A stretch of 17,850 nt of DNA. It comes from a virus. Taxonomy: Duplodnaviria > Heunggongvirae > Uroviricota > Caudoviricetes. Both the position numbers and the translations under genes were made by a program. The stretch lies in the IMG/VR virus record IMGVR_UViG_2654587568_000021; one strand, written 5' to 3'. The notes below the pieces were generated by a model that made no database searches, had not been told where the DNA came from, and saw only the letters and a program-made list of their open reading frames with translations. This document shows positions 4,087-16,386 of the stretch, piece after piece. Within the stretch, counting starts at the first letter, position 1; each line of letters opens with the position of its first letter.

Positions 4087-4741
4087 CCGTCCAGAAGAAG
4101 ATATTTTCACTGGCTGGTATGTCACCAAAATCCAGCAATATGACAGCAAAGTCTGGCATTAATACAGCAGATACAAGCAAAGTTTATCATTTTCTGGTGG
4201 TAGGAGCGGATGCCTTAACTATGTCAGAAATTACGGTCGATGGTGTTAGCGTTGAGAAGGTCAGCGGCTGCGCCAGAGAATTTCTGGTCGTAGATGGCTT
4301 TCTCTGCTCGCGTAGTGACTCCACAAAAACCTTCGTCCATACGCGCGACGTTAACGAAATGAGCGCGATGTATTGTGCATCTGGTGCTTCCAATACTGAG
4401 TTTTCGGAGTCCATAAAAAAGAGCTTGCCGTTATGCGGCAACACGGTTTATGGTTATAAGGCACCTCATAAAACGGGTGCCGGGATTGGCGTCCTGAAAA
4501 TTCTGAAGGCGACATATGACGCGCCGAGCGTCTTTTTTTATGTCGTAGGTCTGACTCACCCATTTTTTGGGCGTTGGTGTATAATCCAGCGCCTTTGTCA
4601 ATCAATGGTGGCTCAGGCGGGGGCTTCTTCGGAAGCGCCGGTATCCTTCAGAGCCGGTTACGCCAACCCTGTCTGGGCTACCACCAGCGAAATTGGCGTT
4701 TCCGGTGGTAGCGTAACCTGCTATCTGAAGGAGGCTGCCAC
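4080..4741 (+). CDS. Uncertain ORF: frame stays open from an ATG at 4080 (overlapping the upstream stop) through to 5147, crossing a terminator-like hairpin, a promoter and the Icd-like gene; the part shown here may be a real gene, a fused or frameshifted remnant, or non-coding
   Basis: ATGCTAA start/stop overlap at 4080-4086 suggests coupling. An open frame of about 220 codons before the Icd-like start is unlikely by chance, but the translated composition is not convincing and regulatory signals lie inside it. Confidence 0.25.
4518..4539 (+). terminator. Candidate rho-independent terminator (GACGC-loop-GCGTC followed by T7)
   Basis: 5-bp GC-rich stem at 4518-4522 / 4528-4532, then TTTTTTT at 4533-4539. 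Confidence 0.35.
4550..4590 (+). promoter_or_regulatory. Candidate sigma70 promoter with perfect -10 TATAAT (4580-4585) preceded by TG; weak -35
   Basis: gtgTATAATcc at 4577-4587. Lies about 155 nt upstream of the Icd-like gene. Confidence 0.4.
4590..4735 (+). ncRNA. Candidate C4/IsrK-like antisense RNA leader upstream of the Icd-like gene (position-based hypothesis)
   Basis: In P1-type immunity regions a C4 RNA lies between the promoter and icd. Here a promoter-to-icd leader of about 150 nt occupies the same position. No structure or homology was verified. Confidence 0.25.
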
Positions 4742-6419: not shown

Positions 6420-9176
6420 ATGCGAAACATTGATCTTATCCGTCAGGTTATCAGTGCGTCTGAAAACAACTGGCCTCATGTGCTGGGCTGCCTGAACATA
6501 AATGTCCCTGACTCTCCGCGCCGTCATGCTCCCTGCCCTGCATGTGGGGGCAAAGATCGATTCCGGTTCGATGACAACGGGCGCGGTAGCTTCATCTGTA
6601 ATCAGTGCGGCGCTGGTGATGGGCTGGATTTAATTAAACGCGTAAATAACTGCGACACAACAGAGGCGGCGCTTCTTGCCGCTGATGTTCTGGGTATTGA
6701 TTACCGGACAACGGAAACACCAGAAGCCACCAGCCAGAAACGGGAACAACTGGAAACCGAGCGCCAGCGACGCGAACAGGAGCGCCTGAAAAGGGCAGAG
6801 AAGGACGAACAACAAAGACGGGATACGTTTTCCCGTCAGTTTGATGACATGCGCAGAAAGGCTGTAAACGGCAAATCTGATTATCTGGTTGCGAAAGGGG
6901 TAGGTGATTTTACATTCCCCGTGTTGCCCGATGGATCTCTGTTGCTGGCGCTGGTGGATAAATCCGGCGCAGTCACAGCAGCACAGACTATTACCTCACA
7001 TGGTGAAAAAAGACTCCTGACAGGTTCAGCAAAGCGAGGGGCATATCACGCCATAAACGCACCAGAAACAACACAGAGCATCTTAATCGCAGAAGGGCTG
7101 GCAACGGCATTATCTGCCCATTTAATTCGTTCAGAAGCGCTGACAGTGGCGGCGATTGATGCCGGGAACCTGTTATATGTCGCCCAGGTACTGCGGGATA
7201 AATTTCCTTCAGCACAAATCATCATTGCTGCGGATAACGACCACAGCGAAGGAAGACAAAACACGGGGAGAATAGCAGCAGAAAAAGCAGCTTTATCTGT
7301 TTCTGGATGGGTGGCATTACCCCCGACAGATCACAAAGCAGACTGGAATGATTACCACCAAAAACACGGCATTAAATGCGCCACAGAAGCGTTCAATAAG
7401 TCAATGTACCAACCACAGGGTAATGGCGTGAAACAGGAGCCACAGACCATTGAGGGAAGCGATTTTAAGGTTATGGATACCGACCCACTGAAACCAAGAA
7501 TAGAAAGCCGCGAGGATGGTATTTATTGGGTATCTCCGAGAGCTGACAGCCAGAGTGGAGAAATCATCAATAACGAAAGCTGGTTATGTTCTCCTTTAAG
7601 CGTTATCGGTACTGGCAGAGACGATAAAGACCAGTATCTCATTCTTCGCTGGCTGTCGTTTGGTTCTGAAACGCCGACAACCGCTGCCATTCCACTGGCT
7701 GATATTGGTGAACGTGAAGGATGGCGCACACTTAAAGCTGGTGGGGTAAATGTCACGACCAAAAGCAGCCTCAGAGCAATACTGGCAGACTGGCTACAAC
7801 GCAGTGGCTCTCGTGAATTGTGGCGTGTTGCTCATGCCACTGGCTGGCAATGCGGAGCGTACATCATGTCTGATGGGGAAATCATCGGAACACCTGAAAA
7901 TCCTGTGCTGTTCAGCGGGAGAAGCTCAGCCGCAGCCGGATATACCGTCTCAGGGAGCGCGAAAAGCTGGCGTGATAACGTGGCGCGTCTGGCCTTTGGT
8001 AACTATTCAATGATGACCGGGATCGGCGCAGCACTGGCAGCGCCATTGATTGGGCTGGTGGGCGCTGACGGGTTCGGTATTCATTTCTATGAGCAGTCGA
8101 GCGCAGGTAAGACCACCACGGCAAACGTGGCGAGCAGCTTATACGGCAACCCTGATTTACTGCGGCTGACGTGGTACGGAACCGCGCTGGGGCTGGCAAA
8201 TGAAGCCGCCGCCCACAATGACGGACTAATGCCGCTTGATGAAGTTGGTCAGGGCGCTGATCCTGTCAGTGTTTCACAGTCTGCCTATGCGTTATTTAAC
8301 GGTGTAGGGAAACTGCAAGGCGCTAAAGATGGTGGAAACCGGGATCTAAAACGCTGGCGTACAGTGGCAATCAGCACCGGAGAAATGGATTTAGAAACAT
8401 TTATCGCTACTTCCGGGCGAAAAACCAAAGCCGGGCAACTGGTGCGACTGCTGAATATTCCGTTGAGTAAAGCAGTACGCTTTCACGATTACCAGAACGG
8501 AAAACAGCACGCAGACGCACTGAAAGACGCTTACCAGCATCACCACGGCGCAGCCGGGCGTGAGTGGATTAAATGGCTGGCAGACCACCAGCAACAGGCT
8601 ATTAAAACTGTTCGTGACTGCGAAAGCAGATGGAGAAGCCTGATCCCATCCGATTATGGTGAGCAGGTTCACCGTGTAGCCGCGCGATTTGCCATTCTGG
8701 AGGCCGCATTGCTGTTAGGCGAGGTTGTAACAGGCTGGGATGCTCAGACATGCCGTGATGCGATACAGCACAGCTATAACGCATGGTTGCGCGAGTTCGG
8801 CACAGGTAACAAAGAGCATCAGCAGATTATTGAACAAACGGAGGCATTTCTTAATGCCTATGGGCTTAGCCGTTTTGCACCATTTCCATACAGCCCGGCA
8901 GATTTGCCCATCAAAGATTTAGCCGGATACCGTCAGCGTGGAGAACATGACGAAAGCCCAATGATTTTCTACACATTCCCGGCCACATTTGAAAAGGAGA
9001 TCGCATGTGGTTTCAACGCAAAACAGTTTGCTGAAGTGTTGAAAAAAGCCGGGATGCTAACCCCACCAAACAGCGGTCGTGGATACCAAAGAAAATCACC
9101 ACGTATTCAGGGACGACAAATAAACGTTTATGTACTCAATTACCAGCCAGGAGATTATAACTCATCCGAAGAATGA
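6420..9176 (+). CDS. P4 alpha-like DNA primase-helicase, 918 aa: N-terminal zinc ribbon, Toprim domain, C-terminal P-loop NTPase
   Basis: CPACGG...CNQCG zinc-binding motif. Toprim signatures IAEG and DNDH. Walker A SSAGKTTT and Walker B-like LMPLDEVGQG. Confidence 0.9.
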   Translation: MRNIDLIRQVISASENNWPHVLGCLNINVPDSPRRHAPCPACGGKDRFRFDDNGRGSFICNQCGAGDGLDLIKRVNNCDTTEAALLAADVLGIDYRTTETPEATSQKREQLETERQRREQERLKRAEKDEQQRRDTFSRQFDDMRRKAVNGKSDYLVAKGVGDFTFPVLPDGSLLLALVDKSGAVTAAQTITSHGEKRLLTGSAKRGAYHAINAPETTQSILIAEGLATALSAHLIRSEALTVAAIDAGNLLYVAQVLRDKFPSAQIIIAADNDHSEGRQNTGRIAAEKAALSVSGWVALPPTDHKADWNDYHQKHGIKCATEAFNKSMYQPQGNGVKQEPQTIEGSDFKVMDTDPLKPRIESREDGIYWVSPRADSQSGEIINNESWLCSPLSVIGTGRDDKDQYLILRWLSFGSETPTTAAIPLADIGEREGWRTLKAGGVNVTTKSSLRAILADWLQRSGSRELWRVAHATGWQCGAYIMSDGEIIGTPENPVLFSGRSSAAAGYTVSGSAKSWRDNVARLAFGNYSMMTGIGAALAAPLIGLVGADGFGIHFYEQSSAGKTTTANVASSLYGNPDLLRLTWYGTALGLANEAAAHNDGLMPLDEVGQGADPVSVSQSAYALFNGVGKLQGAKDGGNRDLKRWRTVAISTGEMDLETFIATSGRKTKAGQLVRLLNIPLSKAVRFHDYQNGKQHADALKDAYQHHHGAAGREWIKWLADHQQQAIKTVRDCESRWRSLIPSDYGEQVHRVAARFAILEAALLLGEVVTGWDAQTCRDAIQHSYNAWLREFGTGNKEHQQIIEQTEAFLNAYGLSRFAPFPYSPADLPIKDLAGYRQRGEHDESPMIFYTFPATFEKEIACGFNAKQFAEVLKKAGMLTPPNSGRGYQRKSPRIQGRQINVYVLNYQPGDYNSSEE

Positions 9177-9201: not shown

Positions 9202-9313
9202 GTTGGTTCAGTTGGTTCAGTTGGTTAAATTTGTAAAGAGTGTTGTTTTATAAGGATTTTATTCTTTTTATTGAACCAACACCGAACCAACAACACGGTA
9301 TTTTGAACCAACA
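9202..9313. repeat. Iteron cluster, candidate replication origin: three tandem GTTGGTTCA repeats, an AT-rich spacer, then three inverted TGAACCAAC copies
   Basis: Direct copies at 9202-9210, 9211-9219 and 9220-9228 (third degenerate). Inverted copies at 9272-9280, 9283-9291 and 9305-9313. Begins 26 bp after the primase stop. Confidence 0.6.
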
Positions 9314-9633
9314 CAATGTGACTGAATTGATGCGCACAACACCTGGCTGGCATCAGAGAGTGTTTTACGAGACTTTCGTAAAATCCTGTGTACAAGGGCG
9401 TGACGTTTTTGAAAGTGAGCACTACGAAATTTTCGTAGTTCAGAAAACAGCCCCTGAGAAGTTGTTATGCCTGTTCAGCAAACCATCCGCATAGCTGATC
9501 GCGAATCAAATTACCAATGGAGCCAGAAGCAAGGGCAGAACTGAAAAGCGCCTGCCGTGAAGAGTAATGCGACACCATAAATATAGTTTTTAGAGTCCAT
9601 AAAAAACCTGTCAAAACCTGACACACAGAACGA

Positions 9634-9760: not shown

Positions 9761-9934
9761 ATGGCTATTTCAGTAAAGCCAGTATTGATAAGTGAGAAGC
9801 AAATGGAAGCGATAAAGAAAATTCAGGAGGAGCAGCGTAAAAAATCAGAGGTAGGAGTTGCGCCAACGATCCACGAAATTGCTCGGGGATTAATGGATAA
9901 GGCGCTGGCTTACACTTTAACTGGACGTGGGTAA
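9761..9934 (+). CDS. Small hypothetical protein, 57 aa, first gene of the cargo operon (below the 60-aa ORF-track cutoff)
   Basis: RBS AGGGGG at 9751-9756, ATG at 9761, TAA at 9932-9934; translated by hand as MAISVKPVLISEKQMEAIKKIQEEQRKKSEVGVAPTIHEIARGLMDKALAYTLTGRG. Confidence 0.5.
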   Translation: MAISVKPVLISEKQMEAIKKIQEEQRKKSEVGVAPTIHEIARGLMDKALAYTLTGRG

Positions 9935-9938
9935 ATCA

Positions 9939-11405
9939 ATGGCTACGTGGCAACAGGGTATTAATTCTGGTGGTTTTCTGGCTGGCATTGGTGCGCAAAA
10001 CGAGAATGCGCCAAAGGCAAGCGACATTAACGCAACGCTTGGTCTGATCCGCGAAAACAATGAACTGGCTCGCTCAGGTGCAAATAACGTTGCTCTGACA
10101 GGTCTTCGTGGTCTGGCTGGCGTTGCTGATATTTATAAGCAGCAGCAACAGCAGGAGCGTAAAGCGGCATTCCAGAAAGGTTATGCAGATGCTTATGCGT
10201 CCGGTGACAGGGAGCAGATGCGTAATCTTATTACAGCATTCCCAGAAGAGTTTGAGGAAGTCCGTAAAGGGATGAGTTATGTCGATGATGCTCAAAGGGA
10301 TGATTATGGCAATCTGGCGCTCAAAGCACAGGTAGCCTCATCGCTTGGTCAGGGCGCATTTGGCAGGTTCATGATGGATAATGAGCAGGAGATGCGTCGT
10401 TTAGGTATCCCTCCAGAAACTATTGCTGAAATGCAGGTTAATGACCCGCAGGGCTTCCAGCATTTCGCAGGTAATCTGGCGCTGTTTTCTCTCGGTCATG
10501 AGAAGTATTTCGATATCAAAGATCAAATGGAAGGTCGGGATATTGAGCGTGGCAAGTTGGCAGAGACAATCCGCAGCAATCAGGCTGGCGAAGCACTTCA
10601 GGCGAGAGGGCAGGATATTAGCCGAGCAAATGCGTTAACGTCAGCATATGCACCAACAGCAGCAATGCAGAATTACAATCAGTACGCGCAAATGTTAAAG
10701 GCGGATCCAGAGGGGGCGGCGGCATTTGCGGCAGCGGCTGGAATTAATACAAACGCCAAAAAATTAATGAGTGTTAGAGAAAACGATGATGGCACTGTCA
10801 CAAAATACTACACAGACGGAAGTGAAGAGCAGGGAAAACTAAACCAGCCAATATCTGGAGATGGGTTTCGTCCAATAGCTTTGCCAACAGCCCAAAAGAT
10901 CATGGAAAAGTCGCCAGAAGGGGCTAAAAAAGCTGCTGGATTTGCATACAGGGTTAGGGATGCTCTTGATTCAATAGATACACTGAAAGACCAGCTTAGC
11001 CCACAGCGAGTGGCGATCATTAATAATGCTTTGGGTAATGGGACGCTGGCTAACTTAACGCTCAGCCCAGCAGAGCAGCAATACGTTGTTAATGCTAATG
11101 ACGCAATAATGGCAATACTCCGTCAGGAAACAGGGGCATCTATCCTACCAGCTGAAATGTCCAAATATTATCAAATGTATTTCCCTCAGCCTGGTGATTC
11201 CACAAAAACCATTGATACCAAGCGCCGGAAGATGGAAAACCAGTTCAATTCGCTGAAAGCTGCTTCTGGTCGAACTTATGATGCTTTGCGGGTTATTTCA
11301 GCAGTTGACAGAGGAACTGCTTCTTCGTCGCAGACATTGCCGCAATCTGAGCAGGTATCACAGCCAGCAGCCAGCAGTAACTTTTCTTCACTATGGGGTG
11401 ATTAA
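9939..11405 (+). CDS. Large hypothetical protein, about 488 aa, Ala/Gln/Gly-rich; no family recognised. An alternative GTG start at 9927 gives the 492-aa ORF-track version
   Basis: Long intact ORF with an ATG 4 nt after the upstream stop. Stop overlaps the next start (TAATG). Confidence 0.8.
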   Translation: MATWQQGINSGGFLAGIGAQNENAPKASDINATLGLIRENNELARSGANNVALTGLRGLAGVADIYKQQQQQERKAAFQKGYADAYASGDREQMRNLITAFPEEFEEVRKGMSYVDDAQRDDYGNLALKAQVASSLGQGAFGRFMMDNEQEMRRLGIPPETIAEMQVNDPQGFQHFAGNLALFSLGHEKYFDIKDQMEGRDIERGKLAETIRSNQAGEALQARGQDISRANALTSAYAPTAAMQNYNQYAQMLKADPEGAAAFAAAAGINTNAKKLMSVRENDDGTVTKYYTDGSEEQGKLNQPISGDGFRPIALPTAQKIMEKSPEGAKKAAGFAYRVRDALDSIDTLKDQLSPQRVAIINNALGNGTLANLTLSPAEQQYVVNANDAIMAILRQETGASILPAEMSKYYQMYFPQPGDSTKTIDTKRRKMENQFNSLKAASGRTYDALRVISAVDRGTASSSQTLPQSEQVSQPAASSNFSSLWGD

Positions 11406-13510
11406 TGGCTAAAGCATGGAAAGATGTTATCGCCTCTCCACAGTATCAGGCGTTAGCACCAGAACAAAAAGCGCAGGCTCAGGAGCAATACTTCAATGAA
11501 GTCGTGGCCCCGCAAGCCGGAGAAAGTGTAGAGCAGGCTAAGCAGGCTTTTTATGCTGCCTATCCACTACCATCAACGAATGAAATAGACCGATCCCAAT
11601 CAGCAACTCAAAATATTCAACATACATCATCTGATAATTCTCTTGCGTCAGGGTATGCAAAGTTAGCTACTCAGCAAAGAGAGGGGCTTGAGCGTTCAGC
11701 AGAACAGGGAGCCAGTCTTGGGGCTGCGATGCGCGATGCTATAACAGGCGAAAGCCGAATGACTCCAGAGATGGAGAGACTGCAAAATGTCGCCTCTGCC
11801 CCAGAATTGAACTCACTAAGCATGGATGCCCTAAAGGCTGGATGGTCTCAACTTTTCGGCTCTGACGCGTCTCAGGAAAAGATTCTTCAGGGAATGGGGG
11901 CGACATTAAGGCAGGATGAGAAGGGGAATACTATCGTTTCTCTGCCATCAGGTGATTATGCCCTGAACAAGCCGGGTTTATCACCGCAAGACCTGACCTC
12001 GTTTCTTGCTAATGCGTTGGCGTTTACACCAGCGGGCAGGGCTGGAACGGTGCTTGGTGCCATAGGAAAATCAGCAGCTACAGATTTAGCACTACAGGGA
12101 GCCACCAGCCTTGCTGGTGGAGAAGATATTGATCCGTTACAAACGGTAATTTCTGCTGGCATTGGTGGTATTGGTAAGGGGCTGGAAAATACAGCGAGTG
12201 CGGTTTCGAGGGCTGTTCGTGGTGATATGTCGCCTGAAGCAAAGGCTGCTGTCGACTTTGCATCGGAAAGAAATCTGCCGTTAATGACCAGTGACATGCT
12301 GAAAGATAAAACCTTTATGCAGAGTCAGGCTCAGACATTAGGCGAAAGAGTTCCTTTTTTTGGAACCGGTAAGAATCGGCTGAATCAACAACAAGCACGA
12401 GAAAATTTAGTCAGAACATTTAGCGATGGTCTGGGTGGCATTTCTGATAAACAGCTTTATGAATCTGCGACTAAAGGGCAACAAAAATTCATTGAGGCAG
12501 CAGGAAAGCGATATAACCGCATAATTGACGCTATGGGGGATACCCCTGTCGATCTCTCAAACACGGTAAAAGCTATCGACAATCAGATTGCCGTGTTAAG
12601 CCGCCCGGGCAAATCTCAGGATAGAGCCGCGGTAAAAGTCTTGCAGCAATTTAAAGACGATATCACCAGCGGACCAAATGACCTGCGTCTGGCGAGGGAA
12701 AACAGAACCGATCTTCGAAAGCGATTTATGGCGTCATCTGACACTGTTGATAAAGATACGCTCCAGAAAGCCAGCGATATTATCTACAAGGCATATACGG
12801 CGGATATGAAAAAAGCCGTAGCCAAAAATCTTGGAGCAGACGAAGCCATTAATATGGCAAGGGTTGATCGCTCATGGTCTAAATTCAATGACATGATGGG
12901 AAGAACGCGCGTTCAAAAGGCAATAGCCAGCGGCAAGGCCACGCCTGAGGATGTAACAAAACTCGTTTTTAGCCAAAGCCCATCAGAACGTTCTCAGCTT
13001 TACAGGCTTCTGGATGACAATGGTAGGCAAAACGCACGAGCAGCCATAGTTCAGAATGCTGTAGATAAGGCGACTGATCCGTCTGGAAATATCAGTGTTG
13101 AGAAGTTTATTAATGCGTTACACCGGAACAGGAAGCAATCAGCAACTTTCTTTAAAGGCGTACATGGAAAGGAACTGGACGGCGTTATTAAATACCTCAA
13201 CGATACAAGACACGCGGCAAAAGCGAACGTTCAAAACTTAAATGGTCAGCAGCTTTATGGATTGTTAGTTGGTGGTGGCATCATAAACGCAGCAGTATTA
13301 GCGGGGATGCTAAAAACGGCTGCGTTTGTTGTTCCTGCTGCTGGTGCCGTAGGCGGAGCAGCGAAGGCATACGAAAGCCCTGTTATACGAAATGCCTTGT
13401 TACGTCTGGCAAATACGCCAAAAGGTAGCACAGCATATGACAGAGCGATCAGTACGGTCACACAATCGCTCACCAGAGTCGCACAGGCATCACAAAAAGA
13501 AGCTCAATAA
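11405..13510 (+). CDS. Large hypothetical protein, 701 aa, with a C-terminal Gly/Ala-rich hydrophobic segment (LYGLLVGGGIINAAVLAGMLKTAAFVVPAAGAVGGAA); function unknown
   Basis: Long intact ORF coupled to the upstream gene and followed by a terminator hairpin. No enzymatic motif recognised. Confidence 0.85.
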   Translation: MAKAWKDVIASPQYQALAPEQKAQAQEQYFNEVVAPQAGESVEQAKQAFYAAYPLPSTNEIDRSQSATQNIQHTSSDNSLASGYAKLATQQREGLERSAEQGASLGAAMRDAITGESRMTPEMERLQNVASAPELNSLSMDALKAGWSQLFGSDASQEKILQGMGATLRQDEKGNTIVSLPSGDYALNKPGLSPQDLTSFLANALAFTPAGRAGTVLGAIGKSAATDLALQGATSLAGGEDIDPLQTVISAGIGGIGKGLENTASAVSRAVRGDMSPEAKAAVDFASERNLPLMTSDMLKDKTFMQSQAQTLGERVPFFGTGKNRLNQQQARENLVRTFSDGLGGISDKQLYESATKGQQKFIEAAGKRYNRIIDAMGDTPVDLSNTVKAIDNQIAVLSRPGKSQDRAAVKVLQQFKDDITSGPNDLRLARENRTDLRKRFMASSDTVDKDTLQKASDIIYKAYTADMKKAVAKNLGADEAINMARVDRSWSKFNDMMGRTRVQKAIASGKATPEDVTKLVFSQSPSERSQLYRLLDDNGRQNARAAIVQNAVDKATDPSGNISVEKFINALHRNRKQSATFFKGVHGKELDGVIKYLNDTRHAAKANVQNLNGQQLYGLLVGGGIINAAVLAGMLKTAAFVVPAAGAVGGAAKAYESPVIRNALLRLANTPKGSTAYDRAISTVTQSLTRVAQASQKEAQ

Positions 13511-13514
13511 CTGG

Positions 13515-13537
13515 TTAGCCATGGATGGCTAATTTTT
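13515..13537 (+). terminator. Rho-independent terminator of the cargo operon
   Basis: Stem TTAGCCA / TGGCTAA with loop TGGA, then TTTTT. The stop codon of the convergent - strand gene (13529-13531) lies inside the 3' arm. Confidence 0.5.
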
Positions 13538-13948
13538 GTTCTTTGCTCTCATCCATAGGTAAAGAAGGGAAAGAACAAGGCAAAAAACAGAGAATAGATA
13601 ACCTACCTCATATGGTGCGCCAAAAAAATTAGCTATTGATACGGGCAAAAAAGCTGAGGCGATCAAAATTGAAAGGCAAAAAATAAGCCCAGTAATATAG
13701 TTTATTAAATTCTTAAATGAGAAACGTTTTGCTTGATTTACGGTCTTAACGAACGATCGCTTAACGACGGATAAAAGCAAATAGATGGCGACAGTTGCTA
13801 ATGCCCCTTTCCACCAGTCTGGATATAGTTTTGCGACAATCAGACCAAGGAAAACCATGATGACAGCCTGAGCATTCACACCAACCCTCCCTTTAGCTTT
13901 GTTTAGAATGGCAATCATCATATATCCAAGACATGGCATTTGGTACAT
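13529..13948 (-). CDS. Small integral membrane protein, 139 aa, about 4 predicted TM helices, AT-rich, convergent with the 701-aa gene
   Basis: Four hydrophobic stretches of 15-25 residues read by eye. One 60-nt sample (13621-13680) is about 37% GC, below the roughly 50% flank. No clear SD, so the start codon is uncertain. Confidence 0.6.
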   Translation of the reverse strand: MYQMPCLGYMMIAILNKAKGRVGVNAQAVIMVFLGLIVAKLYPDWWKGALATVAIYLLLSVVKRSFVKTVNQAKRFSFKNLINYITGLIFCLSILIASAFLPVSIANFFGAPYEVGYLFSVFCLVLSLLYLWMRAKNKN

Positions 13949-13994
13949 AGCTTGGGTCGGGATTTCAAATCCGATCCCCGTTGATGGGGCCGTT

Positions 13995-14376
13995 ACAGTA
14001 CGCGCATATCCGCTTTATGTGAAACAGGAAGATTTTTCTGATATCACTGCCACAGCAAAACACCAATTTCGTGACCAGTACGCGCGCGAGGGGTATCAGT
14101 TGCAAAATTTTTTGCAACTGCGTCCGACCAGTACGCACACGATGGCGGGGGATACCATGAAACTGTTCTCTACACGAGACAGAGTGGTGGTGATGTGTTG
14201 ATTATCGGCGTATATGCGCACAGGACGCGCTATGACGATGTTTTATGCGGGTACACCAATCACATGTATCTGATGTGATAAATCGCGTTACATGACCTCT
14301 CTGTTGTGCTGGTGGTTATCACGACGTTCTGAATCTGGCCTTTGCCTGGTATTTTGCGACAAGTACGCGCGCGTAG
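13995..14376. repeat. Four direct copies of a (G)ACCAGTACGCRCRCG-like motif plus an 11-bp inverted repeat with 2-bp spacer (14097-14120) in a non-coding region
   Basis: Copies at 13995-14006, 14073-14090, 14126-14140 and 14358-14376. Palindrome CAGTTGCAAAA-tt-TTTTGCAACTG. Confidence 0.4.
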
Positions 14377-14921
14377 CATCGAAATAATCGGATGGCGTAT
14401 GCTGCTGGTAATATGAAGACCGATAGCATTAACCGTAAGGAGAAAGACTTCTCGATAACGGCAAGATCGCGGCAAGGGGGCTGAATTGCGAGGCGAGATT
14501 AAGCAACTGTCTTGAACGTAAAAATCATGGAGCAACATGATGGTACGATTCATTCCATTCTTCGTTCTTTCTGAGTATTGCGTTCAGGCTTAGTCAAAAT
14601 TAGTGTTGCGAGCGGACCTATTAGTAATTGTTAGTGCGATGCGCCTGTTATGGATTGTTATGGTTGTGGCAGGCCTGATTAATATCCAGTATGACCACCA
14701 GCTATGAGAGGCCACCTCAGTGGTTCGCAGTTGCAGGTTTGCACTCAGGTTCGCAGGGTTTTGGCTACTTTCACGTGCGAACCTGCAGAATTGCAAAGGA
14801 CAACTAAGTCCTCTGGCCAACTCCCGGTTTATGAGCGACACAGTCCGCCTGGCGCATCGTTTTCGTCGAGTGCGCCCATCAGCTTGTCCATGGACTATCC
14901 ACCACTCGATATTAAAGCTAA

Positions 14922-15107
14922 TCATTGGTTGCCAGCCCGCGAATCAAGTTTGTTCTGGATCCAAGCTTCAACCTCCTCAAGCGACCATCTAGCTGATCTA
15001 CCAATTTTAACTGGCTGTGGAAACGTGCCCGTCTTAACCCATGAGTAGATTGCCGTTTTCTTGAAGCCCGTTCTGAGCATAACTTCGCTTAATTTGATAA
15101 GGCGCAT
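14922..15107 (-). CDS. alpA: Second AlpA-family regulator, 61 aa, on the - strand
   Basis: MRLIKLSEVMLRTGFKKTAIYSWVKTGTFPQPVKIGRSARWSLEEVEAWI is a typical AlpA HTH as I recall it. AGGAG RBS on the - strand upstream of the ATG. Confidence 0.85.
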   Translation of the reverse strand: MRLIKLSEVMLRTGFKKTAIYSWVKTGTFPQPVKIGRSARWSLEEVEAWIQNKLDSRAGNQ

Positions 15108-15155
15108 AGAGGCTCCTCTGCTTTAGATTAAGCATAGTGACAATCTGGCTTTGGC

Positions 15156-15190
15156 GGTATCCAAAAGCGAGGTATCCATGTTGGTATCCA
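15156..15190. promoter_or_regulatory. Three direct GGTATCCA repeats in the divergent intergenic region between alpA(-) and the 63-aa gene(+)
   Basis: Copies at 15156-15163, 15171-15178 and 15183-15190. A perfect TATAAT at 15328-15333 precedes the + strand small gene. Confidence 0.3.
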
Positions 15191-15358
15191 CCAAAACGCT
15201 GTTTACCAAAAAAGTTACCACCGGAACAGGACATTTTGAGCTGTAACTTAACACATAGCATATGGAGTTCACGCATAGACTTCACGCACAACGGCTCCGG
15301 CCAGTGAAGAATCACCCTGGCTGGCAATATAATGCCGATCACCATCAGAGGGGGATCC

Positions 15359-15550
15359 ATGACACCACGAGAAATCGAGCTGCTGACCATTGCCAAGCTG
15401 GAGCATGACGGCCACCAGCTCAGCCCGGCAGAACTGCGGGAATTAAGGCGCCAGCTGGCAGAGGGCCCTGTAATAGCCAGGCGGTACCGCGAAATGATGA
15501 CCAGCCCCGCATATCGCTGGAGCAAACCAGCGCCGCTCCGTGCGCGGTGA
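15359..15550 (+). CDS. Small hypothetical protein, 63 aa (MTPREIELLTIAKLEHDGHQLSPAELRELRRQLAEG...)
   Basis: GAGGGGG RBS then ATG at 15359. An alternative upstream ATG at 15332 has no RBS. Confidence 0.45.
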   Translation: MTPREIELLTIAKLEHDGHQLSPAELRELRRQLAEGPVIARRYREMMTSPAYRWSKPAPLRAR

Positions 15551-15624
15551 GCAGCACCTAACCAGCACTAGACAAGCCCTGTGCTGGTGGATGTCCCTCA
15601 TAATTAGCGGTTTTTAAACAGCGT

Positions 15625-15745
15625 GTTGGTTCACGGCCTCTTTTTGTTGGTTCAAAAATGGGGTGTGTTGGTTCACTTTTTGCGAATAATTCTTTTAAAA
15701 ACAATACTCTTTACAAATTGAACCAACTGAACCAACTGAACCAAC
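15625..15745. repeat. Second iteron cluster, the reverse-complement copy of 9202-9313: three spaced GTTGGTTCA, an AT-rich spacer, then three tandem TGAACCAAC
   Basis: Direct copies at 15625-15633, 15646-15654 and 15667-15675. Tandem inverted copies at 15719-15727, 15728-15736 and 15737-15745. The reverse complement of 15711-15750 is near-identical to 9193-9232. Confidence 0.6.
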
Positions 15746-15781
15746 ACCTTTTTGCTTATCTATATAGTCTGAGAGGCAGAA

Positions 15782-16069
15782 ATGATAAGGGACAGGAAAG
15801 CTGAAGATCTGGAGTCAAAAGGGCTATACCGGAGAGCTGCCGCACGATGGGCAGAAATCATGATGCTGGCAGATGGCGATAAAGAACGTGAACATGCAGC
15901 AAACAGACGCTCTGAATGTATCCGTAAGGCGGCACGCCAACCAGCAACTACAGACAGATTCGGAGATTTAAGACAGGCAGTTAAGCGAACTCATTCGGCT
16001 CTTGGTATGGATGAGGAAGCGAGAGGGTACTTCAGGCGTTATCGCGATAAAGATTGCCAGAGACAGTAA
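15782..16069 (+). CDS. PerC-family transcriptional regulator-like protein, 95 aa
   Basis: GAGAGG RBS. The segment LESKGLYRRAAARWAEIM resembles the conserved PerC/Pch motif as I recall it. Confidence 0.6.
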   Translation: MIRDRKAEDLESKGLYRRAAARWAEIMMLADGDKEREHAANRRSECIRKAARQPATTDRFGDLRQAVKRTHSALGMDEEARGYFRRYRDKDCQRQ

Positions 16070-16206: not shown

Positions 16207-16386
16207 CGAAAATTTCGTAGGGGGTTACGAAAATTTCGTAGGTCTACTCATGGTTTAGGCTTACTTTCCCGACATCCCCCAATGGGTGGGGGCGAAATAA
16301 TCAATGGGTTAGGCTTACCTCCCCCATTTCCTGCATTGCAGGTTTTCGAAAGAATCAATGGGTTAGGTCATCGTGCAAATTTGCAC
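16207..16386. repeat. Non-coding array of phased direct repeats and palindromes: CGAAAATTTCGTAGG x2, TCAATGGGTTAGGCTTAC-like x3 at 53-54 bp spacing, GTGCAAATTTGCAC palindrome
   Basis: Copies at 16207-16221 and 16228-16242; 16248-16264, 16301-16318 and 16354-16370. Palindromes at 16330-16342 and 16373-16386. Confidence 0.45.

Follow-up and report, generated by a model that had tools for sequence, protein, structure and literature searches.

EcCIMP1 is a phage-inducible chromosomal island (PICI) of Escherichia coli MP1 that is induced and specifically transduced by the P22-like phage vB_EcoP_Kapi1 (ISME J 2025, PMC11773190). Within this family of islands, excision, replication and transfer induced by a helper have been shown experimentally for EcCIMP1 with Kapi1 alone; EcCIMP1 has no terminase gene, and the mechanism of its packaging is unknown according to the authors (PMC11773190). 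Here we describe a gene-free tract at positions 13880-14921 of the viral record IMGVR_UViG_2654587568_000021, a stretch of 17,850 nucleotides (nt) that is referred to as the window in its full length and that is, by its genes, an E. coli chromosomal island of the EcCIMP1 family of PICIs. The tract is real and non-coding. It contains an array of short direct repeats that are derived from the small-terminase gene (terS) of a helper-type phage and that may, as we tentatively propose, imitate the site at which such a phage starts packaging its DNA (pac).

The window shares with EcCIMP1 the order int, alpA, TOPRIM/DUF927 primase, helper-like ejection proteins, inverted alpA_1 and PerC, and it is likewise terminase-free. 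A P4-type integrase with its integrase domains is encoded at 1-1215, a TOPRIM plus DUF927 primase protein at 6420-9176, two P22-type DNA-ejection proteins across 9927-13510 (the Inj_translocase protein being 9927-11405) and PerC at 15782-16069. The window therefore has what characterizes a PICI (an integrase followed by alpA, a primase/helicase, neither capsid nor terminase genes, and no intact terS) as well as the marks of the EcCIMP1 type, namely ejection proteins related to those of the helper, a second, inverted alpA_1 and a distal PerC. In a sister locus from strain GF8 (L001) the annotated gene order is the same; the ejection genes are followed there by a minus-strand membrane-protein gene, an unannotated gap, an inverted AlpA gene, PerC and the chromosomal yagP/pao. 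Beyond membership in the family, we infer from gene content and order that the window represents EcCIMP1 itself. The gap between the genes matching EcCIMP1_022 and EcCIMP1_023 then corresponds to the tract studied here; the published account leaves this gap, its repeats and any packaging site undescribed (PMC11773190). EcCIMP1_023, that is alpA_1, is Xis-like, dispensable for the island and able to replace the Xis of the helper, and the kanamycin marker with which EcCIMP1 was followed had been put between EcCIMP1_022 and EcCIMP1_023, with a transfer called 'extremely low' (PMC11773190). Judged by gene order, the marker site would be this very tract.

Satellites are known to pirate the packaging signals of their helpers, as P4 does with its cos site, EcCICFT073 with a cos site and Rpp, and SaPIbov5 with a cos site. 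The present case would resemble them in that a satellite without the full packaging machinery carries the recognition sequence of the helper and is packaged by the helper terminase, but the known cases carry single cos sites or a TerS of their own. We know of no description of an array of degenerate fragments from inside a helper terS. The pac site of a headful phage is short and is located in the small-terminase gene or beside it. For P22 it falls within gene 3 (PMC9611059; PMC8022706), and the pac of SPP1 comprises several direct repeats over a few hundred base pairs (bp) (PMC4737164), with the boxA, boxB and boxC direct repeats of pacL and pacR. The array described here is similar in kind, but its boxes are found in a satellite devoid of terS, and they are multiple copies of one internal terS segment.

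We searched 5426 complete E. coli genomes and told the pieces of the tract apart by their distribution. The tract is a mosaic of four unrelated pieces with separate histories, and the whole of it is found in 147 genomes. It forms the non-coding boundary between a phage-derived module of ejection proteins with a gene at the position of sieA and the variable cargo region of the island. The leftmost piece, termed unit a, contains all of the repeats:

13880-14384, plus strand: unit a, a conserved non-coding module of 505 bp with all five repeats and both palindromes
13996-14005, plus strand: repeat copy 1 (CAGTACGCGC), found as a motif match
14055-14092, plus strand: repeat copy 2 with its flank (TTTCGTGACCAGTACGCG at 14067-14084), which aligns with terS nt 157-189
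14097-14120, no strand: perfect 11-bp palindrome CAGTTGCAAAA-TT-TTTTGCAACTG, found by an inverted-repeat search
14121-14146, plus strand: repeat copy 3 (CGTCCGACCAGTACGCACACGATGGC), with the core TATGC in about half of the variants
14221-14230, plus strand: repeat copy 4 (CAGGACGCGC), the most degenerate one, invariant among 14 variants
14259-14279, no strand: inverted repeat ATCACAT-N7-ATGTGAT, read from the sequence
14344-14377, plus strand: repeat copy 5 with its flank (GCGACAAGTACGCG), identical to Kapi1 terS nt 176-189

An initial annotation of the window, made from the letters alone, had noticed four copies of a motif containing CAGTACGCRC. There are in fact three exact copies, at 13996, 14076 and 14129, and two with one mismatch, at 14221 (CAGGACGCGC) and 14361 (AAGTACGCGC). 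All five are on the plus strand and lie within 375 nt inside unit a. Matches with at most one mismatch number 6 in the entire window against 0.91 expected, a count that none of 200 shuffles reached. Copies 2, 3 and 5 are alike over a core of about 15-20 nt and copies 1 and 4 over about 10 nt, while the flanks are unrelated. The 11-bp inverted repeat with its 2-bp spacer, also noticed at the outset, is perfect (chance estimate about 1e-3 per kb) and is kept at 10 of 11 bp in sister islands; in Ec387 it was lost with a 53-bp deletion between repeat copies 2 and 3. The second inverted repeat, ATCACAT-N7-ATGTGAT, is present as described but individually weak, and its 7-bp symmetry is not conserved because the right arm starts with G in most sister copies. 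Four sister islands (L059, L062, L073 and L077) have, beyond the cargo, a paralogue of copy 5 of about 50 nt that is called motif6. About 250 nt after motif6, the same islands have a 69%-identical paralogue of a 72-amino-acid (aa) open reading frame (ORF) that the window carries at 15332-15550.

The origin of the repeats became apparent from comparison with phage terminases. The small terminase of the helper Kapi1 is of the Sf6 type (PF20901), and its gene contains GATTTTCGCGACAAGTACGCGAAGG, coding for ...HEDFRDKYAKA. The 14-mer GCGACAAGTACGCG of copy 5 is identical at 14 of 14 positions to Kapi1 terS at the corresponding gene position; taken alone, this match is a lead, with E = 0.13 and a second 14-mer in existence that is clearly due to chance. 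In a search of 2.9 million viral contigs, however, the 18-mer G[CG]GACAAGTACGCGCGCG was found inside eight unrelated intact Sf6-type terS genes, in all eight at the same codons, where it encodes the family signature (F/I)RDKYARA. An E. coli prophage terS allele (L093) that is 86% identical to that of Kapi1 reads TTTCGTGACCAGTACGCG, and copy 2 matches its nt 169-186 at all 18 nt. None of 2000 dinucleotide shuffles of unit a reached 18 (the maximum was 16), and the other tiles of the window gave 13 or less.

Local alignments place copies 2, 3 and 5 and motif6 on terS nt ~146-189, a stretch that codes for ...WLAKHEDFRDKYA, whereas copies 1 and 4 gave no alignment to this stretch. In all four cases the alignment stops on ...GTACGCG or shortly after it; the CGCG(CG)(A/T)(G/A)G that follows is most alike in copies 2 and 5 and motif6. 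The repeats are therefore paralogues of a single captured piece of an Sf6-type small-terminase gene, nt ~146-189, and not independent decayed genes. Whole decayed Sf6-type terS genes were considered as well and rejected, since a profile hidden Markov model of Sf6-type TerS aligns with the copies over positions 48-64 alone, at 3-7 bits. Sister variants of copy 2 (CGT/CGA/CGG and CAG/AAG) differ at the same two codon positions that are variable among the phage alleles, and the version in the window is the sole variant that matches one phage allele exactly. A terS origin of the island repeats was unexpected, but it is statistically solid.

In L095 (NZ_CP012625.1, 549-989) and about 400 other E. 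coli genomes, prophages carry a terS of which the last ~90 nt alone are shared with the Kapi1/Sf6 gene. This type of terS has an unrelated N-terminal DNA-binding domain, which fits the reported horizontal exchange of TerS DNA-binding domains.

Unit a is widespread. The left 440 bp of the tract are found in 545 of the 5426 genomes (~10%), always unannotated, and the repeats, a lack of conservation of which would have spoken against the initial annotation, are kept in these 545 genomes. In islands whose flanking genes have been replaced on either side, unit a is still 94-98% identical. Three loci (L008, L073 and L074) have a unit a of 94-95% identity though their ejection genes and most of the membrane-protein gene are alleles whose divergence is beyond the reach of BLASTN, so that unit a is better conserved there than the adjacent genes. 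The left breakpoints of unit a are at 13816 and 13874-13876 and the right one at 14382; in many islands, homology on the right stops at 14377-14384 and other cargo follows. The cargo between unit a and PerC consists of Abi, ImmA/IrrE or Panacea-domain genes, or of alpA_1, and sister islands at other integration sites keep unit a with different cargo. We counted 43 variable sites among 14 distinct variants of unit a, with its first ~90 nt (13876-13968) almost invariant and most of the variation between 14072 and 14200. True P22-like prophages have the membrane-protein gene and lack unit a. The retention of the core while the flanks differ, the positions of the copy-2 variants, and the fact that unit a outlasts both of its neighbours suggest selection on the boxes.

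The tract marks the edge of a satellite island's cargo hotspot. P4-like satellites and P2-like phages have similar hotspots, with variable cargo bracketed by conserved sequence (Rousset et al. 2022, PMC9122126), but the present island is of another satellite family, and its left bracket is non-coding and derived from terS. In L007 (NZ_CM151354.1, 4795-5117), a truncated rusA from a lambdoid prophage has been joined to the last 116 nt on the right of unit a (14267-14382), and island cargo and PerC follow; this is a recombinant between prophage and island at the same chromosomal site.

P22-like phages have their pac site inside terS; this is established for P22, and in Sf6 the site reportedly lies in the part of gene 1 that encodes the DNA-binding domain (Leavitt et al. 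2013). The island has no terS but is transduced specifically by its helper; we therefore propose that the terS-derived repeats are mimics of a pac site that recruit the terminase of the helper. We hold this reading tentatively, as possible but short of probable. The boxes would act as a multi-copy mimic of the helper's pac site, to which TerS rings of the helper would bind; TerL would make its cut close by, and headful packaging would then proceed to the right along concatemers of the island. Two further pieces of the tract described below, a stub of a terS of another type and the remnant of an insertion sequence (IS), would be inert scars of earlier cargo turnover. A wider form of the proposal, which we regard as doubtful, is that terminase-less satellites in general ('Type C' PICIs) are packaged by means of arrays of boxes copied from the interior of the helper terS, including a matching of alleles to the helper terS that is kept up by recombination.

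Several observations weigh against a role in packaging. The link between the repeats and packaging comes from sequence likeness. The identities of 14-18 nt to the terS of Kapi1 and to E. coli Sf6-type alleles at gene nt ~169-189 are above those of shuffles, but they need not coincide with the pac site of the Sf6 type. Individual boxes are no better conserved than their surroundings; copy 3 has changed from TACGC to TATGC in half of the variants, and Ec387 has merged copies 2 and 3 through its 53-bp deletion. What follows ...GTACGCG on the 3' side is CGCGCG in the boxes but AAGGCA in the alleles of E. coli phages. Unit a is found in 545 genomes and Sf6-type terS in 229; among the genomes listed, in lists that are partial, 2 overlaps were seen versus ~1 expected, so a co-occurrence of the two is not shown. 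Binding of TerS to pac in vitro is only weakly sequence-specific (PMC9611059), and the transfer of EcCIMP1 by Kapi1 is very inefficient (PMC11773190). It may be that this low transfer simply reflects the lack of a good pac site.

To the right of unit a, two short remnants adjoin each other:

14385-14506, plus strand: Terminase_2-type terS stub (gene nt ~93-215) that is frameshifted and lacks both ends of the gene, found by homology
~14500-14596, minus strand: outer-end remnant of an IS110-family element, comprising the element end and the final ~70 nt of its transposase gene, found by homology

Over positions 14387-14519 the sequence has 83-84% nucleotide identity to terS genes that are intact in prophages of Yersinia and Enterobacter, where each is followed by terL, and the repaired stub peptide is 64% identical at the aa level to a PF03592 protein from a phage contig. 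The intact relatives are Terminase_2 proteins (the terS of L014 matches PF03592 at 5.5e-17). The stub shows PF03592 homology but no intact frame, as gene nt ~93-227 with frameshifts are what is left, and it is a pseudogene. In E. coli, all copies of this Terminase_2 terS are stubs that start at gene nt 93-95 and have variable ends up to nt 227; none of the 5426 genomes carries an intact gene of this type or more than 29% of it. Homologues with an intact gene, which would have pointed to a recent pseudogenisation, are thus missing in these genomes. Sister islands retain 0, ~45, ~60, ~100 or ~127 nt of the stub, and from the fixed 5' end and the variable 3' ends it follows that it arose once and was eroded from its 3' side by cargo replacement. 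We also tried to read copy 5 as the N-terminus of this Terminase_2 stub (FC.KY), but homology to the gene starts abruptly at nt 93 in every E. coli copy. The likeness is therefore coincidental, and copy 5 fits the Sf6-type terS better. Upstream of the intact Yersinia and Enterobacter Terminase_2 terS genes, no comparable direct repeats were found.

Copies of the IS110 family with 93-96% identity to the IS remnant (~14500-14596) are found in more than 2000 E. coli genomes and on many plasmids, and the matching stretch reaches into the 3' end of transposase genes annotated elsewhere. A full element with a transposase gene and both ends is not present; about 97 nt of one end remain, and this end abuts the terS stub in the lineage of the window. 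The initial annotation had also suggested a decayed gene or element junction, a description that fits the middle of the tract, where stub and IS end lie.

The left border of the tract is set by a neighbouring gene:

13529-13879, minus strand: 116-aa membrane protein at the sieA position of P22-like phages, a context gene

True P22-like prophages (L065-L072) have, following gene 16, a gene with 92% nucleotide identity to this one, and the homology ends at 13901. No Pfam or PHROG family was found for the protein, and a first contig scan of genomes gave no relatives of the gene in other species. The prophage counterpart begins at a GTG preceded by the ribosome-binding site AAGGGAGG, which is found here at 13885-13893. 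The true start is therefore probably the GTG at 13879 and the predicted '139-aa' ORF over-extended, which makes the gene-free tract 13880-14921. In L077 this gene alone has been swapped, exactly from stop codon to start codon, and it is exchanged as a cassette among the sister islands. EcCIMP1 adds superinfection immunity against Kapi1, and no known defence system was found in it (PMC11773190), so the gene at the sieA position is an obvious candidate for this immunity.

The non-coding character noted at the outset for about 1 kb (13950-14920) was borne out, for a slightly longer region. ORFs of 97-111 aa exist, but they were rightly dismissed as unconvincing. Among 14 distinct sister copies they are disrupted by an additional G at 14146, an additional A at 14301 and the 53-bp deletion, and substitutions are even over the three codon positions, with no third-codon bias. 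Six-frame pieces of the tract gave nothing in Pfam and PHROGs beyond weak terS matches, which come from the repaired stub, and one 20-residue match to a PHROG of unknown function; no listed genome has an NCBI annotation under the tract. A protein-coding gene was rejected on this lack of Pfam and PHROG support and on the broken ORFs of the sister islands.

The tract had further been called dense in direct repeats and palindromes. The individual features are real; a globally raised density of palindromes is not, as RNA folding of neither strand and neither half exceeds that of shuffles (z -0.7 to -1.5). Rfam 15 gave no match for 13500-15800 even at E<=5 except one chance microRNA hit outside the tract, and the three matches of the window at Rfam gathering score all lie outside it as well. 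The suggestion of a non-coding RNA locus thus found no support. A regulatory hub, likewise suggested, is conceivable solely for the left ~100 nt beside the sieA-position gene, although no promoter-like site was found within the tract on either strand; terminators were not found there either. Those left ~100 nt of unit a probably hold the promoter and 5' leader of the sieA-position gene.

The right end of the tract has a history of its own:

14597-14921, no strand: segment d, 325 bp beside alpA_1, delimited by its distribution
14646-14663, plus strand: two copies of TGTTATGG, 10 nt apart, with 3 in the window versus 0.5 expected
14722-14783, no strand: two direct copies of GGTTCGCAG and an inverted one-mismatch copy at 14775-14783, clustered within 62 nt
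14922-15107, minus strand: alpA_1, AlpA/excisionase-like, 61 aa, a context gene with AlpA-family annotation

Segment d is present in 153 genomes, always together with alpA_1; it has no match outside these 153 genomes and no family match, and it folds like its shuffles. The tandem repeat seen initially near 14645-14670 (TGTTATGG at 14646 and 14656) and the paired copies at 14723-14757 (GGTTCGCAG at 14722 and 14748) are both real and individually weak. The window-wide count of GGTTCGCAG is not above chance and its clustering alone stands out; the cluster includes an imperfect 13-bp hairpin, 14732-14744 with 14775-14787. In Kapi1, the attachment site is just downstream of xis, between xis and int. 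It is therefore a reasonable guess that segment d, with the GGTTCGCAG cluster beside alpA_1, may be the relic recombination site of an alpA_1 cassette, although no support for such a site was found in the sequence of segment d.

Some other parts of the island deserve mention. The likely replication origin is located just 3' of the primase gene, where three copies of GTTGGTTCA face three copies of TGAACCAAC (9202-9314). The same iteron is found three times again at 15720-15750, just upstream of PerC, and the palindrome TACGAAAATTTCGTA at both sites (9366-9437 and 16208-16245), a two-site layout that recalls the ori and crr of P4. The region 15200-15600 is a patch of high guanine plus cytosine content (56%) with the 72-aa ORF at 15332-15550, which NCBI has not annotated. 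The window also encodes an AntA-domain protein and an Ash-family ORF. An int-alpA RNA is found at 1276-1343, and an isrK/C4 antisense pair, overlapped by the Ash ORF, at 4461-4538 and 4601-4688. The int-alpA RNA, isrK and C4-type antisense RNA beside an Ash-family ORF amount to an RNA immunity module of the P4/P1 type, which sits here within an island otherwise classed as a PICI. The repeats of the tract are not a target of the C4/isrK antisense RNAs, to which they have no complementarity, and the motif is absent at 4461-4700. Integrase arm or Xis sites were rejected too, as the motif occurs neither close to the ends of the island nor close to the attP site of Kapi1.

Packaging, neutral decay, regulation and recombination do not exclude each other as explanations of the tract. 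One account, which is possible but which we rather doubt, takes the whole tract as a graveyard at the usual place of terS, where repeated illegitimate recombination and cargo swaps have left fragments of two types of terS and of an IS; the repeats would then be functionless local duplications, and their conservation a consequence of the youth of the islands and of frequent recombination. A pseudogene stub and an IS remnant directly adjoin unit a, the boxes are polymorphic and one was removed by recombination in Ec387, the indels at 14146 and 14301 are tolerated, and the Sf6-type TerS profile gives the copies a mere 3-7 bits. As whole islands are 93-99% identical, the time for decay has been short, which also counts in its favour. 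However, neutral decay is unlikely to keep the same core of 15-20 nt in several copies while erasing the flanks, and it sits badly with a unit a that survives the swap of both neighbours, surpasses the adjacent genes in L008, L073 and L074 in conservation and is still present, at several integration sites, in 10% of E. coli genomes. A regulatory role appears unlikely to us. Unit a would then be a divergent promoter/operator that drives the sieA-position gene leftwards and the cargo genes rightwards, and the repeats and palindrome would be sites for AlpA or for a repressor or antirepressor of island or helper. The left edge of unit a coincides with the start codon and ribosome-binding site of the sieA-position gene, hardly any site varies in its first ~90 nt, it is the constant upstream flank when L077 swaps that gene as a cassette, and the palindrome has the size of an operator; in sister islands, moreover, the copy-5 paralogue lies ~250 nt ahead of another small gene. 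On the other hand, the tract lacks a promoter-like site on either strand, the other promoter regions of the island do not contain the box, Ec387 does without the palindrome, and the identity of the boxes to a coding segment of the helper terS would be left unexplained.

It is improbable that the boxes and the copy-5/motif6 pair serve as short homologies for the exchange of cargo or for cointegrates with the helper. Cargo breakpoints do cluster at 14377-14384, directly after copy 5, a direct repeat of ~50 nt brackets the cargo in L059, L062, L073 and L077, Ec387 shows a deletion between copies 2 and 3, and Kapi1 carries recT, the gene of a RecT recombinase. But 14-18 nt of identity to the phage gene are short for efficient recombination, and no hybrid of island and phage joined at terS was seen; the one in L007 is joined at 14267, next to rusA. 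We give hardly any credence to a second, iteron-type replication origin, a protein-coding gene or a structured non-coding RNA. The irregularly spaced direct repeats resemble iterons, and ORFs of 97-111 aa exist, but the iterons of the island, GTTGGTTCA and TGAACCAAC at 9202-9314 and 15720-15750, are unrelated in sequence to CAGTACGCGC and sit beside the primase gene and near PerC, so that an origin in the tract was rejected. The ORFs are broken in sister islands and show neither codon-position bias nor family matches, and there is no Rfam match or excess folding that would speak for an RNA.

Part of the tract is ordinary, consisting of a pseudogene stub, the scar of an IS and the junction of a cargo hotspot, all within a satellite of a known kind; a function as non-coding RNA, ORF or origin has no support. 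The initial annotation was partly right, and the four-piece makeup and the terS origin were invisible to it. If the tract is debris, it still illustrates usefully how a satellite hotspot becomes scarred with remains of terS and IS as its cargo turns over. EcCIMP1-type islands have no terminase, lack genes for capsid remodelling and show no cos or pac site that has been recognised; a P22-like helper nevertheless moves them specifically, and the authors who described them pose their packaging as a question (PMC11773190). A defined candidate of 400 bp with five mutable boxes makes this question directly testable, and the insertion of the marker inside the tract may have lowered the published transfer rate. 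If the boxes do act as a pac mimic, pairs of helper and satellite could be spotted by fragments of the helper terS inside the satellite, and the pac determinant of the Sf6 type would lie within terS nt ~146-189. If the 'Type C' reading were also true, it would explain how these abundant PICIs, which current finders fail to classify, are packaged.

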